From a virus (taxonomy: Duplodnaviria; Heunggongvirae; Uroviricota; Caudoviricetes): 47,087 nucleotides of DNA. Every line of letters starts with the position of its first letter. Positions within the stretch are counted from its first letter, which is position 1. This document shows positions 2,819 through 37,813 of this stretch, in pieces. The stretch lies in the IMG/VR virus record IMGVR_UViG_2718218131_000001. One strand, written 5' to 3'. Made by a program: the position numbers and the translations under genes. The notes beneath the pieces are model-generated. The model searched no databases. It worked only from the letters and a program-made list of their open reading frames with translations, and was not told the origin of the DNA.

Positions 2819-5441
<2,623 letters not shown>

Positions 5442-9548: not shown

Positions 9549-9998
9549 TTACTTAACCAATGATGCTGCATATTCGATAAGGTAAAGCTTTGGGGCCAGC
9601 CAAATTTTTAACCAAGTCATATTGGTTACTACAGCAATAATAAAACTTACCCACAGAACAAAAACTGCAGCTAATGGTAAGATTAGAAAACTAATCTCAC
9701 CGTTACTTTCCCAAATCATAGTCGGTTTGTATTTAGTCTTCCCCTTATCCCATGACCATCCTTCATCATCGAACTTACCAATTTCAACTTTTTGGCACTG
9801 TTTCTTCATAAACCAGAAAACCAGCGGGATTGTTAAAATGGCTATTAATGTTTTAATCAGACTGTCAACCATATTCCATAGCAGTAACTGATGAACAACA
9901 TCAGGAATCTGTGCCTGGCTAAATGAGACAGCCGCGTCTATTCCATTACTGGCTTTTTGCAATAGTTCTATGAGAATCTTATTTGCCTGTTCTTCCAT
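9549..9998 (-). CDS. Membrane protein in the ral/sieB slot (candidate superinfection-exclusion protein)
   Basis: 149-aa ORF with two hydrophobic segments (LIKTLIAILTIPLVFWFM and ISFLILPLAAVFVLWVSFIIAVV); AT-rich; sits between ea10 and N. Confidence 0.55.
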   Translation of the reverse strand: MEEQANKILIELLQKASNGIDAAVSFSQAQIPDVVHQLLLWNMVDSLIKTLIAILTIPLVFWFMKKQCQKVEIGKFDDEGWSWDKGKTKYKPTMIWESNGEISFLILPLAAVFVLWVSFIIAVVTNMTWLKIWLAPKLYLIEYAASLVK

Positions 9999-10056: not shown

Positions 10057-10329
10057 TTACCTCGCTGTCAGTTGTTTTGATTTCCGGTAGCCTGCCGCGT
10101 AAAGAGCTACGTTCGGAAGACAAGTTGAACCTTCATATTTTCTGGTCAACGTTGTCAGAGTTATAACTTCTGCTCTCATTGCTGGTTTGCGCTTGCATTG
10201 CAAGACCACTCGTGAAGGGGTTGGCCTGTGTAGCTTGTCGGAGCTAATCGCCTCCTGACTTTGCAGGTTTGCGCGACGAGCTCTACGGCGAGAAGCTGCG
10301 GTGCCTTTAAATTCTGTTTTTCTGGACAT
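10057..10329 (-). CDS. N: N-type transcription antiterminator (P22 gp24-like)
   Basis: Track ORF 10057..10401; start at internal ATG 10329 with GGGAGG RBS; arginine-rich N-terminus GTAASRRRARRANLQ; C-terminus LPNVALYAAGYRKSKQLTAR resembles P22 gp24. Confidence 0.75.
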   Translation of the reverse strand: MSRKTEFKGTAASRRRARRANLQSQEAISSDKLHRPTPSRVVLQCKRKPAMRAEVITLTTLTRKYEGSTCLPNVALYAAGYRKSKQLTAR

Positions 10330-10427
10330 AGATTCCTCCCGAATAAACTTTGGCGATGCAATCTCGAAGCTCCTCCTGAGACGGTTACTTCGGCATTGCA
10401 TCCCACAGCTTATGTGGTTGGGTGATC

Positions 10428-10473
10428 TGGCTTTTCAGCCACGTAGTCGAGTGTTCGACGTTGTTTAAAGAGC
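10428..10473 (-). promoter_or_regulatory. nutL-like site (boxA GGCTCTTTAA, boxB GGCTGAAAAGCC)
   Basis: On the leftward transcript between pL and N: boxA-like element then a short hairpin with GAAAA-type loop; the boxB loop matches the nutR candidate. Confidence 0.4.
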
Positions 10474-10519
10474 CTGCCAGTCTGCTCCGTTTGGCTTACA
10501 GCGTCCTGCTGATGAGTTG

Positions 10520-10566
10520 ACTTTATCGAAATGATAAACTGATGGCAATAGCAAAATGATAAATTG
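10520..10566 (-). promoter_or_regulatory. pL/oL: leftward early promoter with repressor operators
   Basis: Minus strand TTGCCA-17 nt-TAAAGT; two copies of the AAATGATAAA operator motif that also recurs in oR. Confidence 0.5.
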
Positions 10567-10744
10567 TTTGGGTTTTCAAATATCCTGTTGATTATTATGG
10601 TTTTTTATTTGATTGCGGGAATTTATCAGAAGGAATGAAGAGACTTGAGGGGGATCAGAATTTCGTGGTTTAGAAAGTTGTATCTATCAATTTTTCAATA
10701 AATACAATTGGTTAAGGTGTTATTAGGTGTGGGGATCGTGAGGC

Positions 10745-10770
10745 AAAGAAAACCCGGCGCTGAGGCCGGG
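10745..10770 (-). terminator. tImm-like rho-independent terminator
   Basis: Hairpin CCCGGC-(6 nt)-GCCGGG followed by TTTTCTTT on the minus strand; surrounding ~100 bp recalled as the lambda sequence just downstream of rexB. Confidence 0.6.
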
Positions 10771-10791
10771 TTCTGTCATCTAACTTAAGTA

Positions 10792-10920
10792 TCAAGCCGC
10801 TTTTTGTGAATGATTGATGTGAGCTTCAAAGTCGCGGCGTAGATTTTGAACGCGCTCTACACATCCGCGCATTTCAGCCAAAAGCTTACTAACGGCAGTA
10901 TAGTCAAACGCTTTAGTCAT
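10792..10920 (-). CDS. Small hypothetical protein (42 aa), second gene of the rex-slot cassette
   Basis: ATG at 10920 preceded by GAGGGG then an A-run; MTKAFDYTAVSKLLAEMRGCVERVQNLRRDFEAHINHSQKAA; stop 3 bp before the tImm hairpin region; below the track length cutoff. Confidence 0.45.
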   Translation of the reverse strand: MTKAFDYTAVSKLLAEMRGCVERVQNLRRDFEAHINHSQKAA

Positions 10921-10935
10921 TTTTTTTCCCCTCGT

Positions 10936-11298
10936 TTAAATGTAAGGCTCAACATCAAGGGCTGCTATTGCTGCGCACAATGCGTCAGGATCGTCAGCAT
11001 CGATGGCTTGAGCCAGGTCATTAGCCAGTATAAGTAACTTATCGATGACAGCGATTTCGCTGGTCTTATCTACACGAAAGTATGGGAGCAGAGCATTACA
11101 TACGTCTCTGAATGTCCGTAATTCTGCGACAACGTTCGAAAAGGTAGGATCTTTCTTACGAAGATCCACCAATGGCGCTACTTTAGCTGTTTTCAGCATT
11201 GCACTAATCTCGCCAATCATTGTTCCATGCAGACGATTAAATTCATCAACAGCTCGGTCATGCAAGCTCTTGTTGATTGGCAATACGTTTTGGGTCAC
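10936..11298 (-). CDS. Hypothetical protein (120 aa), first gene of the rex-slot cassette
   Basis: GTG start with consensus AAGGAG 8 nt upstream; predicted soluble, no recognised motifs; AT-rich. Confidence 0.6.
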   Translation of the reverse strand: MTQNVLPINKSLHDRAVDEFNRLHGTMIGEISAMLKTAKVAPLVDLRKKDPTFSNVVAELRTFRDVCNALLPYFRVDKTSEIAVIDKLLILANDLAQAIDADDPDALCAAIAALDVEPYI

Positions 11299-11566
11299 TA
11301 ACTATACTCCTTATATAGGTGTTCGCCAACAGATTTTCAATATGACTTGGGCGATTTCTGAACAATAAGCACGATTTAGCAATGATTAATTGATGTTAAG
11401 CACAAATATCTCTACATCGTGCATTTTTAACTATTTATACACATAAAATCTAATAAATGGATATAAACCTTATGATGATTTTTCTCAATCGAATTGAATA
11501 ATGATCTCTATCACATCACCCAAACGTCTCTTCAGGCCACTGGTTACCAGCTATGTGACGATGAAG

Positions 11567-12271
11567 TCACGAACTTTTCAGCCACTCCCTTGCCTCGATG
11601 TCATCCAGATGGCGAGATTGCTTCAGAATACCAGCCACATACTCCACCTTTGCTACTTGATGATAAGGCAACGTTATTGGCCTGTGGTCCTGGTTGATGC
11701 TTGTAAATTGGTATTCTCCATCTCTGTCATAGCCAAGAACTTTGATCATGTTGTGTCCTTCAACAGTTCTGACAAACACCTCATCCCCCGGGAATACTTT
11801 GGTGTTAGGCTCAATGAGTACATATTCTCCTGATTTTATTCTGGGCCACATGCTGTCTCCTTTCACACGAAGACCAAAGGCATCTGGATCATCGCTATAA
11901 ATATTGAGCCACCCATCGCGCTCTTCGGTCATCTCGATGGCACCATCAACACCAAGAATTGCCTCACCAACCACGCGCACTAACCCTTTTCTTACCTGAC
12001 CGACAAAAGTTAAAGAATCTGAGCATGATGCAATTGGTGTTACATCATGTACCAAATCAAGCCACCCATTAGGTAACCCAAGTGCGGCTTCGAATTTTCT
12101 TGCTAGTTTATCCCCTATGTTTCGAGTGCTTTTTTCACCGGAGACTTGCGTGAGTTGAGAAGGGCTAACTCCAAGCTTATCGGCAAAGCTTGCATTAGTG
12201 TTACCCGCGATTTTTTTATGCTCATCTAGCAAAAACGCCAGATTCGATTTGCGAATATCTTTGTTTTCCAT
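11567..12271 (-). CDS. cI: CI-type prophage repressor (HTH + S24 LexA-like peptidase domain)
   Basis: 234-aa ORF; N-terminal HTH (FADKLGVSPSQLTQV), C-terminal autocleavage domain with GDSM serine and downstream lysine; divergent from lambda CI. Confidence 0.85.
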   Translation of the reverse strand: MENKDIRKSNLAFLLDEHKKIAGNTNASFADKLGVSPSQLTQVSGEKSTRNIGDKLARKFEAALGLPNGWLDLVHDVTPIASCSDSLTFVGQVRKGLVRVVGEAILGVDGAIEMTEERDGWLNIYSDDPDAFGLRVKGDSMWPRIKSGEYVLIEPNTKVFPGDEVFVRTVEGHNMIKVLGYDRDGEYQFTSINQDHRPITLPYHQVAKVEYVAGILKQSRHLDDIEAREWLKSS

Positions 12272-12293
12272 CCCACGATTCTCCCTCTATTTA

Positions 12294-12356
12294 GCAAATG
12301 GATAAATATGCATTTTGATAAATCTTCATTGCGTTTTATTTATCAAAATGGTAAAG
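12294..12356. promoter_or_regulatory. oR operator cluster with pR
   Basis: Three AAATG(G)ATAAA-type sites including the inverted pair CATTTTGATAAA / TTTATCAAAATG; plus-strand TTGCGT-17 nt-TAAAGT facing cro. Confidence 0.5.
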
Positions 12357-12384
12357 TCGCTCTGTGTGATAAACGGAGGCACTA

Positions 12385-12618
12385 ATGAGTAATGAACTAC
12401 TACGCTGGCGAAAAGAGGCTTCTAGTGAGGAATGGAAGCGACTCGCCGCATTAGCGAATACTTCAGTTGGCTATCTTGATCAGATTGCATATGGGTTTCG
12501 AAGAGCTTCCCCAGATAAAGCGAATGCAATCGAAGAAGCCACTCGTAATTTCACGGGTTATAAACCTGTGAAAAAGGAAAATCTGGTGTTCGTATCGCGT
12601 AGAGCATCAGCAGCATAA
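12385..12618 (+). CDS. cro: Cro-like HTH regulator
   Basis: 77-aa ORF divergent from cI across the operator region; GGAGG RBS; HTH-like WKRLAALANTSVGYLDQIAYG. Confidence 0.65.
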   Translation: MSNELLRWRKEASSEEWKRLAALANTSVGYLDQIAYGFRRASPDKANAIEEATRNFTGYKPVKKENLVFVSRRASAA

Positions 12619-13085: not shown

Positions 13086-13957
13086 ATGACAAATACAGCA
13101 AAAATACTCAACTTCGGCAGAGGTAACTTTGCCGAACAGGAGCGTAATGTGGCAGATCTCGATGATGGTTACGCCAGACTATCAAATATGCTGATTGAGG
13201 CTTATTCAGGCGCAGATCTGACCAAGCGACAGTTTAAAGTGCTGCTTGCCATTCTGCGTAAAACCTATGGGTGGAATAAACCAATGGACAGAATCACCGA
13301 TTCTCAACTTAGCGAGATTACAAAGTTACCTGTCAAACGGTGCAATGAAGCCAAGTTAGAACTCGTCAGAATGAATATTATCAAGCAGCAAGGCGGCATG
13401 TTTGGACCAAATAAAAACATCTCAGAATGGTGCATCCCTCAAAACGAGGGAGGTTCCCCTAAAATGAGGGACATCCCTCAAAACAGGGGGACACAAAAGA
13501 CACTATTACAAAAGAAAAAAGAAAAGATTATTCGTCCGAGAATTCTGGCGAATCCTCTGACCAGCCAGAAAACGATCTTTCTGTGGTTAAACCGGATGCT
13601 GCAATTCAGAGCGGCAGCAAGTGGGGAACAGCAGAAGACCTGACCGCCGCAGAGTGGATGTTTGACATGGTGAAGACCATCGCACCATCAGCCAGAAAAC
13701 CGAATTTTGCAGGGTGGGCTAACGATATCCGCCTGATGCGTGAACGTGACGGACGTAACCACCGCGATATGTGTGTGCTTTTCCGCTGGGCCTGCCAGGA
13801 CAACTTCTGGTCCGGTAACGTGCTGAGTCCGGCCAAACTCCGCGACAAGTGGACCCAGCTCGAAATCAACCGTAACAAGCAACAGGCAGGCGTGACAGCC
13901 AGCAAACCAAAACTCGACCTGACAAACACTGACTGGATTTACGGGGTGGATTTATGA
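13086..13957 (+). pseudogene. O: Replication initiator O, split across two frames in the iteron region
   Basis: Track ORF 13086..13643 matches lambda O N-terminal domain; track ORF 13583..13957 in another frame matches the O C-terminal domain; frame changes at the iterons. Confidence 0.7.
13435..13491. repeat. ori iterons (three TCCCTCAAAACGAGGGA-type repeats) inside O
   Basis: TCCCTCAAAACGAGGGA, TCCCCTAAAATGAGGGA and TCCCTCAAAACAGGGGGA at about 20-bp spacing, followed by an A-rich stretch. Confidence 0.75.
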
Positions 13958-35471: not shown

Positions 35472-35797
35472 AGACCTTCCGCTGGAAAGTGAAACCCGGT
35501 ATGGATGTGGCTTCGGTCCCTTCTGTAAGAAAGGTGCGCTTTGGTGATGGCTATTCTCAGCGAGCGCCTGCCGGGCTGAATGCCAACCTGAAAACGTACA
35601 GCGTGACGCTTTCTGTCCCCCGTGAGGAGGCCACGGTACTGGAGTCGTTTCTGGAAGAGCACGGGGGCTGGAAATCCTTTCTGTGGACGCCGCCTTATGA
35701 GTGGCGGCAGATAAAGGTGACCTGCGCAAAATGGTCGTCGCGGGTCAGTATGCTGCGTGTTGAGTTCAGCGCAGAGTTTGAACAGGTGGTGAACTGA
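35468..35797 (+). CDS. M: Tail tip protein M
   Basis: 109-aa ORF in the lambda gpM position and size. Confidence 0.9.
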   Translation: MKTFRWKVKPGMDVASVPSVRKVRFGDGYSQRAPAGLNANLKTYSVTLSVPREEATVLESFLEEHGGWKSFLWTPPYEWRQIKVTCAKWSSRVSMLRVEFSAEFEQVVN

Positions 35798-36495
35798 TGC
35801 AGGATATCCGGCAGGAAACACTGAATGAATGCACCCGTGCGGAGCAGTCGGCCAGCGTGGTGCTCTGGGAAATCGACCTGACAGAGGTCGGTGGAGAACG
35901 TTATTTTTTCTGTAATGAGCAGAACGAAAAAGGTGAGCCGGTCACCTGGCAGGGGCGACAGTATCAGCCGTATCCCATTCAGGGGAGCGGTTTTGAACTG
36001 AATGGCAAAGGCACCAGTACGCGCCCCACGCTGACGGTTTCTAACCTGTACGGTATGGTCACCGGGATGGCGGAAGATATGCAGAGTCTGGTCGGCGGAA
36101 CGGTGGTCCGGCGTAAGGTTTACGCCCGTTTTCTGGATGCGGTGAACTTCGTCAACGGAAACAGTTACGCCGATCCGGAGCAGGAGGTGATCAGCCGCTG
36201 GCGCATTGAGCAGTGCAGCGAACTGAGCGCGGTGAGTGCCTCCTTTGTACTGTCCACGCCGACGGAAACGGATGGCGCTGTTTTTCCGGGACGTATCATG
36301 CTGGCCAACACCTGCACCTGGACCTATCGCGGTGACGAGTGCGGTTATAGCGGTCCGGCTGTCGCGGATGAATATGACCAGCCAACGTCCGATATCACGA
36401 AGGATAAATGCAGCAAATGCCTGAGCGGTTGTAAGTTCCGCAATAACGTCGGCAACTTTGGCGGCTTCCTTTCCATTAACAAACTTTCGCAGTAA
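35797..36495 (+). CDS. L: Tail tip protein L
   Basis: 232-aa ORF with C-terminal cysteine cluster (KCSKCLSGCKF) as in lambda gpL. Confidence 0.9.
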   Translation: MQDIRQETLNECTRAEQSASVVLWEIDLTEVGGERYFFCNEQNEKGEPVTWQGRQYQPYPIQGSGFELNGKGTSTRPTLTVSNLYGMVTGMAEDMQSLVGGTVVRRKVYARFLDAVNFVNGNSYADPEQEVISRWRIEQCSELSAVSASFVLSTPTETDGAVFPGRIMLANTCTWTYRGDECGYSGPAVADEYDQPTSDITKDKCSKCLSGCKFRNNVGNFGGFLSINKLSQ

Positions 36496-36500
36496 ATCCC

Positions 36501-37244
36501 ATGACACAGACAGAATCAGCGATTCTGGCGCACGCCCGGCGATGTGCGCCAGCGGAGTCGTGCGGCTTCGTGGTAAGCACGCCGGAGGGGGAAAGATATT
36601 TCCCCTGCGTGAATATCTCCGGTGAGCCGGAGGCGTATTTCCGTATGTCGCCGGAAGACTGGCTGCAGGCAGAAATGCAGGGGGAGATTGTGGCGCTGGT
36701 CCACAGCCACCCCGGTGGTCTGCCCTGGCTGAGTGAGGCCGACCGGCGGCTGCAGGTGCAGAGTGATTTGCCGTGGTGGCTGGTCTGCCGGGGTGAGATT
36801 CATAAGTTCCGCTGTGTGCCGCATCTCACCGGGCGGCGCTTTGAGCACGGTGTGACGGACTGTTACACACTGTTCCGGGATGCTTATCATCTGGCGGAGA
36901 TTGAGATGCCGGATTTTGTGCGTGAGGATGACTGGTGGCGTAACGGTCAGAATCTCTATCTGGATAATCTGGAGGCCACAGGGCTGTATCAGGTGCCGTT
37001 GTCAGCGGCGCAGCCGGGCGATGTGCTGCTGTGCTGTTTTGGTTCATCGGTGCCGAATCACGCCGCTATTTACTGTGGTGACGGCGAGCTGCTGCACCAT
37101 ATTCCTGAACAACTGAGTAAACGGGAGAGGTATACCGACAAATGGCAGCGACGCACACACTCCCTCTGGCGTCACCGGGAATGGCACGCATCTGCCTTTA
37201 CGGGGATTTGCAACGATTTGGCCGCCGCATCGACCTTCGTGTGA
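36501..37244 (+). CDS. K: Tail tip assembly protein K (JAB/MPN plus NlpC/P60-like domains)
   Basis: 247-aa ORF with HSHPGG JAMM-like motif and Cys/His peptidase-like region; lambda gpK position. Confidence 0.85.
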   Translation: MTQTESAILAHARRCAPAESCGFVVSTPEGERYFPCVNISGEPEAYFRMSPEDWLQAEMQGEIVALVHSHPGGLPWLSEADRRLQVQSDLPWWLVCRGEIHKFRCVPHLTGRRFEHGVTDCYTLFRDAYHLAEIEMPDFVREDDWWRNGQNLYLDNLEATGLYQVPLSAAQPGDVLLCCFGSSVPNHAAIYCGDGELLHHIPEQLSKRERYTDKWQRRTHSLWRHREWHASAFTGICNDLAAASTFV

Positions 37245-37813
37245 AAACGGGGGCTGAAGCCATCCGCGCACTGGCCACACAGCTCCCGGCGTTTCGTCAG
37301 AAACTGAGCGACGGCTGGTATCAGGTACGGATTGCCGGGCGGGACGTCAGCGCGTCCGGGTTAACGGCGCAGTTACATGAGACTCTGCCTGATGGCGCTG
37401 TGATTCATATTGTTCCCAGAGTCGCCGGGGCCAAGTCAGGTGGCGTATTCCAGATTGTCCTGGGGGCTGCCGCCATTGCCGGATCATTCTTTACCGCCGG
37501 AGCCACCCTTGCAGCATGGGGGGCAGCCATTGGGGCCGGTGGTATGACCGGCATCCTGTTTTCTCTCGGTGCCAGTATGGTGCTCGGTGGTGTGGCGCAG
37601 ATGCTGGCACCGAAAGCCAGAACTCCCCGTACACAGACAACGGATAACGGTAAGCAGAACACCTATTTCTCCTCACTGGATAACATGGTTGCCCAGGGCA
37701 ATGTTCTGCCTGTTCTGTACGGGGAAATGCGCGTGGGGTCTCGCGTGGTTTCTCAGGAGATCAGCACGGCAGACGAAGGGGACGGTGGTCAGGTTGTGGT
37801 GATTGGTCGCTGA
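37142..37813 (+). CDS. I: Tail tip assembly protein I
   Basis: 223-aa ORF MAATHTLPLASPGMARICLYGDLQRFGRRIDLRVKTGAEAIRALATQ... matches lambda gpI; overlaps end of K. Confidence 0.85.
   Translation: MAATHTLPLASPGMARICLYGDLQRFGRRIDLRVKTGAEAIRALATQLPAFRQKLSDGWYQVRIAGRDVSASGLTAQLHETLPDGAVIHIVPRVAGAKSGGVFQIVLGAAAIAGSFFTAGATLAAWGAAIGAGGMTGILFSLGASMVLGGVAQMLAPKARTPRTQTTDNGKQNTYFSSLDNMVAQGNVLPVLYGEMRVGSRVVSQEISTADEGDGGQVVVIGR

Follow-up and report, generated by a model that had tools for sequence, protein, structure and literature searches.

A two-gene cassette with a constant leader and exchangeable payloads in the rexAB slot of lambdoid prophages: a candidate exclusion or toxin–antitoxin-like module

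The stretch of DNA analyzed here, referred to as the window (47,087 nucleotides; IMG/VR record IMGVR_UViG_2718218131_000001), is a complete lambdoid prophage of Escherichia coli SLK172 (NZ_CP017631.1, 1833835-1880921) that extends from the integrase through to an NleG effector. Between the gene of its cI-type repressor and a tImm-like terminator, two small genes, here named A and B, are found in place of lambda rexA and rexB. The segment 10773-11514 constitutes a self-contained accessory element (a moron) composed of a leader with promoter-like hexamers, A, B and a terminator, which replaces rexAB. The two genes are never found apart, and the cassette is mobile between prophages. Judged from its sequence, it is a good candidate for a phage-exclusion or toxin–antitoxin (TA)-like module. 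The features listed here are located on the minus strand, in the order cI, 268-bp spacer, A, 15 nt, B, 19 nt and terminator hairpin with U tract:

11567..12271 (-): gene of the cI-type prophage repressor, 234 amino acids (aa) with a Peptidase_S24 domain; upstream gene on the cassette strand
11515..11542 (-): relic of the 3' end of a lambda-type cI (…QWPEETFG followed by the stop), 96% identical to lambda 37226-37253
11501-11515 (-): left boundary motif of the leader, TGTGATAGAGATCAT, from leader alignments
11430-11452 (-): conserved leader block, ATTTTATGTGTATAAATAGT, from leader alignments
11299..11514 (-): AT-rich leader that moves with the cassette, GC content about 0.33
11340-11335 (-): -35-like hexamer TTGAAA, 17 nt from TATATA (11317-11312)
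11329-11324 (-): -35-like hexamer TTGGCG, 17 nt from TATAGT
11293..11322 (-): conserved core, CCTATATAAGGAGTATAGTTAGTGACCCAA, with Shine–Dalgarno (SD) sequence, -10-like hexamer, start codon, and codons 2 and 3
10936..11298 (-): gene A, 120 aa, GTG start, AAGGAG 8 nt upstream
10921..10935 (-): A-B junction, 15 nt, containing the ribosome-binding site of B (GAGGGG)
10792..10920 (-): gene B, 42 aa, ATG start 15 nt past the A stop
10740..10772 (-): intrinsic tImm-like terminator, stem 10772-10765 / 10758-10751, loop CUCAGC, then UUUUCUUUG

The original prediction had placed the cassette in the rexAB slot, on the cI strand and next to a lambda-like tImm, and a blastn comparison of both flanks with lambda bears this out. 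Window 10653-10772 matches lambda 35712-35826 (tImm up to the rexB stop) with 86% identity, and window 11515-11542 matches the final 28 nt of lambda cI (37226-37253) with 96% identity, while similarity is confined to these flanks and none was detected inside the slot. Because lambda-like sequence is present on both sides, the slot assignment is exact: 742 bp (10773-11514) stand in for 1399 bp of lambda that comprise rexB, rexA and the cI-rexA spacer. The homology boundaries relative to lambda (10772/10773 and 11514/11515) are as sharp as those of a moron. Phages encoding Shiga toxin (Stx phages) likewise match to the flanks only. The predicted 120-aa open reading frame (ORF) with its GTG start and AAGGAG sequence and the 42-aa ORF were both recovered on the cI strand, and the 268-bp spacer between cI and A is indeed AT-rich with a GC content of 0.33. 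Two details had to be corrected. The distance from the B stop to the terminator, previously given as 22 bp, amounts to 19 nt up to the stem, and the two ORFs are not AT-rich, with GC contents of 0.45 and 0.446 versus 0.448 for cI, so that low GC is limited to the spacer.

The history of the insertion can be read from the spacer itself. The resident cI, which PGAP labels as a LexA family regulator, terminates in an unrelated end (…EWLKSS), and the lambda-type relic is located 25-50 nt past its stop. Approximately 50 bp of the cI-to-A spacer are therefore the leftover 3' end of a lambda-type cI. In the related locus L017, the relic sequence is the genuine end of a 237-aa lambda-type cI. The relic marks a recombination joint, at which the cassette and its leader moved from a lambda-cI phage into the present immunity type.

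The 742-bp module occurs with ≥99% identity in 89 of 5426 complete E. coli genomes, with at most three copies per genome. The cassette family as a whole is present in about 1.6-1.8% of complete E. coli genomes, chiefly in O26/O103/O111 lineages of Shiga toxin-producing and enteropathogenic E. coli (STEC/EPEC) as well as in poultry isolates, and extends to Citrobacter, Enterobacter, Hafnia, Pantoea, Proteus, Gilliamella and Vibrio. Homologues of A with 45-91% identity were found in Citrobacter, Pantoea, Hafnia, 31 IMG/VR contigs and the Proteus phage Pm34. An exhaustive profile search over 1.84 billion cluster representatives returned only 36 relatives; a profile search of a 5.8-billion set added Gilliamella and Vibrio parahaemolyticus, and all of the matches listed are named 'hypothetical protein'. 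In every locus examined, A is followed after 13-19 nt by a small ORF (co-occurrence 100%, more than 45 co-linear loci). The product of this ORF has 42 aa at the IMG/VR, Hafnia and Pantoea loci; its length is 49 aa in Vibrio, 43 aa in Proteus and 38 aa in Gilliamella. Like the genes of type II TA systems, A and B are hence two small, co-oriented and adjacent genes that are always paired. One irregular record belonging to this survey is NZ_CP148434.1, a 2162-bp 'plasmid' that consists mostly of the cassette; instead of a replicon, it probably represents a fragment left by the assembly of a prophage repeat.

The small size of the ORFs, the lack of database annotation and the GTG start of A could be taken as signs of non-functional filler, i.e. 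of chance ORFs in the AT-rich mosaic between cI and tImm. Yet, dN/dS ratios (Nei-Gojobori) are 0.05-0.12 for A and 0.07-0.42 for B, and both genes are thus under purifying selection. As these values are well below 1, chance ORFs are excluded. The 36 cluster representatives from Escherichia to Vibrio, the strict co-linearity and the confident AlphaFold2 models of both proteins also contradict the filler reading, which can be regarded as effectively excluded.

A synteny survey of the slot, as suggested along with the original prediction, revealed the A+B pair behind many unrelated repressors. These include S24 repressors with at least seven unrelated C-termini, among them the true 237-aa lambda-type cI of L017; Peptidase_S24 was detected in all upstream repressors that were scanned, and a helix-turn-helix (HTH) domain in most. 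Together with the exact substitution of rexAB, this strengthens the positional argument for a module that had been put forward initially. In a P2-like prophage of Gilliamella, the pair resides between a P2-type C repressor (PF07022) and the integrase. In Vibrio parahaemolyticus, it is found on the opposite strand, flanked by a gene for a virion structural protein (phrog_684) on one side and one for a collagen-repeat tail fibre on the other, and this arrangement among tail genes would necessitate a promoter of its own. The cassette is a mobile moron that prefers the lysogenic operon and does not require a particular repressor.

Three of the related loci show additional peculiarities. In the Gilliamella prophage (L042, 3857-3886), three tandem copies of TTTATTGATG are located in the 200-bp spacer that separates the A homologue from the P2-type C repressor; these repeats are operator-like and do not occur in enterobacterial leaders. 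A Hafnia-type locus (L003, 4400-4732) harbors a 110-aa ORF between repressor and cassette leader, and the slot is thus able to take up extra cargo upstream of the cassette. Finally, L038 (2813-3014; identical to L087) contains a decayed cassette, in which codon 36 of A has become joined, through an internal deletion, to the final ~30 codons of B; in some prophages the cassette can be lost in this way.

The region downstream of prophage repressors is a known hotspot, and lysogen-expressed exclusion genes have already been described there, namely RexAB, Stk, Hex and BstA (PMC8585504, PMC3564112). That the slot is documented as a home of the abortive-infection genes RexAB, BstA and Stk supports an exclusion function for the cassette (PMC8585504, PMC3564112). 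With RexA-RexB, it shares the location between cI and tImm, the strand, the terminator and the arrangement of two genes downstream of cI without a terminator in between. In contrast, A is a soluble protein of 120 aa without sequence or fold similarity to RexA (279 aa), B is a soluble 42-aa helix instead of a multi-pass membrane protein of 144 aa such as RexB, and the module spans 742 bp rather than 1399 bp.

Occupants of this slot may also act on the lysogenic state rather than on superinfecting phages. Hex of phage 434 (158 aa) overlaps cI and is cotranscribed with the repressor (PMC3564112). Accordingly, A and B could represent a Hex- or RexA-like modulator that tunes induction or lytic commitment, for example at the level of RecA, the SOS response or the proteolytic handling of repressor fragments. 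Slot and strand are common to the cassette and Hex, which lowers spontaneous induction (PMC3564112), and the slot is also that of RexA, which biases the lambda switch (PMC11077077). The cassette occupies the cI-downstream slot like 434 Hex and 933W Stk, both of which are cotranscribed with the repressor in lysogens; these two are, however, single proteins of other sizes, Stk being a kinase. In addition, the Ala-Ala tail of B is similar to VAA, the ending by which fragments of cleaved LexA and RseA are targeted to ClpXP. On the other hand, the cassette is found behind at least seven unrelated S24 repressors and the non-S24 P2-type C repressor, and its Vibrio copy is far from repressors. This independence of the repressor type speaks against a Hex-like partner dedicated to one repressor, and a tblastn search of the phage collection returned Proteus phage Pm34 as the sole relative. 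A modulator of this kind is therefore considered unlikely.

Beyond the pair known from the window, further proteins are found in the same setting. Translation of the region downstream of the core revealed at least five two-gene payload types (loci L046-L093), each encoding a large protein of 115-128 aa followed by a 39-49-aa partner that ends in AA. In most types the large gene starts with GTG, and the small one with ATG in all. Payload types 3 and 5 are distant members of the A family (phrog_13858, E 6e-5 and 7e-9), while hhalign assigns types 2/4 a probability of 6% for a relationship to the A family, which is thus not demonstrable. Leaders are nonetheless 83-90% identical by pairwise blastn among cassettes with unrelated payloads. 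Between type 1 and type 2, for instance, the leader is 90% identical from -238 to +10, the payloads are unalike, and a 25-nt identical terminator block and homologous flanks follow. Between the window and a type 4 cassette, similarity comprises the 3' part of cI (95%), then only the 28-nt core (100%) and finally the tImm flank. The breakpoints of payload exchange thus fall at +10 and at the terminator. Because these comparisons reveal shared ends but an unshared payload, the unit is best described as a constant leader and terminator with exchangeable, strongly diverged payloads. Such a hypervariable payload between constant ends would be as expected under diversifying selection. Whatever the function of the proteins, a constant leader and core with swappable payloads represents a clean natural case of cassette exchange at a defined junction.

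The best-conserved DNA of the module is the core of 28-30 nt, which spans positions -24 to +6 of A and includes the SD sequence (11312-11307) and the -10-like hexamer TATAGT (11306-11301). Among cassettes whose A proteins are 45-50% identical, its mean pairwise identity is 0.83-0.91, and the best coding windows of the same cassettes remain below this at 0.75-0.77. The exact 22-mer of the core occurs in 48 IMG/VR contigs and once in the window versus 0 expected occurrences, and the exact core is present in 98 of 5426 E. coli genomes. Among the species representatives of GTDB, it was found only in E. albertii and Enterobacter sichuanensis; a scan with a degenerate core gave 31 matches versus ~39 expected by chance, of which only those in the same two species are genuine. 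At locus L035, the core is positioned 56 nt upstream of the true ATG and out of frame with that start, and is therefore more than a ribosome-binding site.

These properties raise the question of whether the core itself is active at the DNA level, as a self-immunity site or recombination linker, with the proteins as the variable specificity part. A precedent is provided by BstA, which is encoded directly downstream of many kinds of prophage repressor and whose DNA self-immunity site aba, cognate for each BstA, comprises 29 bp upstream and the first 34 bp of bstA in the same slot (PMC8585504). The cassette shares with BstA-aba the position directly downstream of varied prophage repressors. The conservation of the core ahead of five payload types, its displacement in L035 and the exchange breakpoints at +10 and the terminator would be in line with such a role. 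However, the overlap of SD sequence, -10-like hexamer and start codon could account for most of the conservation. In addition, aba is cognate and variable, whereas the core at -24 to +6 of A is constant across divergent payloads and has no aba-like repeat architecture, and BstA is a single large protein without homologue in the cassette. A DNA-level function is hence rated as quite doubtful.

The leader also contains candidate promoter elements. Across 12 aligned leaders, TTGxAAA and TTG columns are invariant, and the core region features a conserved TTGnnn-16/17-TATAGT pair (or TATAAT, or TATGAT). The sigma70-like hexamers that had been noted in the spacer are partly substantiated: one pair (TTGGCG-17-TATAGT) is present, but a scan of 10400..12450 yielded 3 sites versus 4.8 expected from shuffles, and judged by counts alone the match is not significant. 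A transcript initiated from this pair would start at or just after the GTG and would not allow A to be translated from this start codon. Since a terminator scan of the window region revealed no intrinsic terminator between cI and A, read-through from pRM into the cassette is plausible. Few prophage regions are expressed as highly in lysogens as the cI-to-N segment of lambdoid prophages.

A structured leader or riboswitch was rejected as an explanation for the conservation: RNAalifold gave no conserved structure other than a 6-bp SD hairpin without covariation, the folding z-score of the window leader is -0.16, and Rfam returned sub-threshold noise with nothing near the gathering thresholds. 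LexA-box, CRP-site and CsrA-site candidates were dismissed upon by-eye inspection of the alignments, as they are not conserved across types. At the other end of the module, the terminator stem is an 8-bp perfect inverted repeat, and folding of the 60 nt that include the hairpin (10736-10795) gives a minimum free energy of -16.7 kcal/mol (z = -2.0). Every related locus possesses a terminator in the same place but of other sequence; like other morons, the cassette thus comes with its own terminator. The consensus terminator scan overlooked the tImm-like hairpin of the window, likely because extension of the stem via A/U pairs uses up the U tract.

Both proteins are annotated by PGAP as hypothetical proteins (WP_000193240.1 and WP_000158654.1) and had been predicted to be soluble, which agrees with hydropathy analysis, as neither contains a transmembrane segment (top 19-residue hydropathy 1.22 for A and 0.34 for B). 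A is acidic (isoelectric point 4.9), and its AlphaFold2 model (pLDDT 82, pTM 0.72) is an all-helical bundle, the helices of which span residues 5-40, 43-47, 53-73, 79-101 and 104-115. Family-wide conservation is mainly hydrophobic, with K39, P51, D115 and the C-terminal …AIAALDxKPYI in addition. B is basic (isoelectric point 9.1) and modeled as a single amphipathic helix (residues 7-41, pLDDT 94) with a heptad hydrophobic stripe of V10, L13, M17, C20, V24 and L27. In the window, A and B are in frame across the junction (TAA plus 15 nt); a readthrough fusion was nevertheless rejected, because the gap varies between 13 and 19 nt at other loci.

The most consistent property of the small partners is their C-terminus, which reads ...SQKAA in B. 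The final Ala-Ala is invariant across five payload types and four genera, while the preceding residues vary. Type 1 partners end in ...QKAA, ...RKAA, ...IPKAA, ...IPLAA or ...IPQAA, those of Proteus, Vibrio and Gilliamella in ...QRKAA, ...TAKAA and ...QNKAA, respectively, and partners from other payload types in ...NKKAA, ...PMAA, ...CKKAA or ...IKKAA. Ala-Ala is even retained among partners that are only 30% identical or lack a detectable relationship, and from amino acid frequencies alone such an ending is estimated to occur by chance in ~1% of proteins. At the core of the ssrA tag (LAA) is a C-terminal, non-polar xAA with a free carboxylate, which corresponds to ClpX C-motif 1, and the VAA ends of cleaved RseA and LexA are recognized by ClpX as well. 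Furthermore, ssrA-like degrons have been described for anti-sigma factors (preprint 10.1101/491043). By analogy, B may be a ClpXP substrate by virtue of its ssrA/RseA-like Ala-Ala end.

Lambda CIII is a small amphipathic-helix protein that serves as both substrate and inhibitor of a protease. B resembles it in being a short amphipathic helix encoded by a phage and in having a tail reminiscent of a protease recognition signal, but the two are not homologous, and CIII targets FtsH, belongs to the lytic/establishment genes of the pL operon and acts alone. This resemblance leads to the idea of host-directed lysogenic conversion, in which B would be a protease substrate, competitor or regulator, comparable to CIII and FtsH, and A its chaperone or partner, with consequences for proteolysis, stress response or division. 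The size and shape of B, a 42-aa amphipathic helix similar to CIII or Kil-type peptides, its invariant protease-tag-like C-terminus, the non-enzymatic binding-type fold of A and the moron positions in different prophage types are all compatible with such a role. However, extreme diversification of the payload behind a constant leader is found more typically in conflict systems than in modulators of housekeeping functions, and Pfam, NCBIfam and PHROGs gave no homology to CIII, Kil or Ira-type proteins. Lysogenic conversion by this route therefore seems improbable.

Searches with A and B in Pfam, NCBIfam and viral fold libraries gave no match, a Pfam scan of 31 family members no consistent weak signal, and single-sequence as well as profile searches of the PDB only compositional matches to designed helical bundles. 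In PHROGs, A is assigned to phrog_13858 (E 5e-73) and B to phrog_12503 (E 2e-26), both of unknown function; the initial statement that neither protein belongs to a recognized family hence holds for described families, while these two clusters do exist. No homology to known toxin or antitoxin superfamilies emerged from domain, defense, PDB and fold libraries, no RexA homologue (about 279 aa) from Pfam, NCBIfam, PADLOC or comparison with lambda, and no BstA homologue from PADLOC and Pfam. A RexB-like polytopic inner-membrane protein is also missing, as neither A nor B has a transmembrane segment. Under the protein accessions or PHROG identifiers, no paper was found, and no description of the proteins, of the AA-terminated-partner rule or of the constant-leader/variable-payload layout was found in libraries or literature. 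By these comparisons, the pair is a new protein family in a known hotspot and belongs to no described defense or TA family.

Taken by their organization, A and B are closest to modules in which a large gene is followed by a small inhibitor. RnlAB and LsoAB are toxin-first modules with a labile antitoxin. RnlA-RnlB and LsoA-LsoB likewise have the larger gene first and the small partner second, and a labile-inhibitor logic is proposed for the cassette as well; they differ in that these toxins are HEPN RNases without homology to A, which lacks an Rx4-6H or other catalytic motif, and in that the lability of B is deduced from its C-terminus. HEPN membership of A was specifically considered and rejected, since H13 and H24 vary across the family. 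With no catalytic-looking motif, A can be read as a binding protein.

It is thus conceivable, and tentatively preferred here, that the cassette is a lysogen-expressed moron in which the labile helix B restrains A in the manner of a TA or abortive-infection system. Tight pairing, acidic and basic charge of the two proteins, the Ala-Ala end and the hypervariable payload behind a constant leader are compatible with this proposal. In such a scenario, the cassette would be expressed in the lysogen, driven by its own leader and/or by the repressor promoter through read-through. A, as a stable acidic three- or four-helix bundle, and B, as a basic amphipathic helix, could then assemble into a helical-bundle complex. 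If the Ala-Ala end acts as an ssrA/RseA-type ClpXP degron, B would be short-lived and require constant resupply, and the GTG start of A versus the ATG start of B may favor an excess of B. Once B runs short or is titrated, for instance when a superinfecting phage shuts off the host or when the prophage is lost, A would be released. Free A might then bind and block a host or phage target, resulting in exclusion, abortive infection or prophage addiction.

Several observations weigh against this proposal. The degron reading draws on two residues and on what is generally known of ClpX C-motif 1. The family-wide alignment of A contains no toxin-like or catalytic-looking motif, and the only polar residues kept across the whole family are K39 and D115. 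Neither A nor B has a match in PADLOC, and scans of Pfam and NCBIfam revealed in neither protein a DNA-binding domain (HTH, ribbon-helix-helix or AbrB) as is customary for type II antitoxins. Furthermore, the leader is common to cassettes with different proteins, which makes TA-style autoregulation by A/B unlikely. Finally, none of the 50,697 deposited phage genomes contains the 28-nt core, and no cultured lambdoid phage is thus at hand to tie it to a phenotype.

A more far-reaching version of the TA-like proposal, held with little confidence, regards the locus as one allele of a polymorphic system with constant leader and variable payload. The payloads would be pairs of a helical-bundle effector or sensor and a single-helix inhibitor timed by ClpXP, and the leader of ~240 nt, with its invariant 28-nt core, would drive their expression and perhaps also mark self in an aba-like fashion or recombine. 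This might amount to a new non-enzymatic class of exclusion or addiction systems, the specificity of which is diversified by cassette exchange. Should the cassette be an exclusion or addiction module, it would be a new, very small and non-enzymatic system, with a simple and testable design rule, i.e. that the small partner ends in Ala-Ala.

The remainder of the prophage provides some additional observations. The prophage appears defective or decaying, with a frameshifted replication gene O (13086-13957), and the region upstream of N (10307-10526) is annotated as a frameshifted pseudogene. Promoter-distal of N, a 149-aa ORF on the minus strand (9549-9998; phrog_3054, unknown function) encodes two long hydrophobic stretches. 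In the related prophage L001, sieB occupies this N-distal neighborhood, and the 149-aa ORF may thus encode an exclusion-type membrane protein. The insertion sequence (IS) IS100 interrupts an ea22-like gene (3574-5375), and a second, IS21-family element is located past the tail fibre genes (44057-46364). At the right end of the prophage, beside an IS, the start of a gene for an NleG-family type III secretion effector is found (46554-47087), a typical cargo gene of enteropathogenic and enterohaemorrhagic E. coli.

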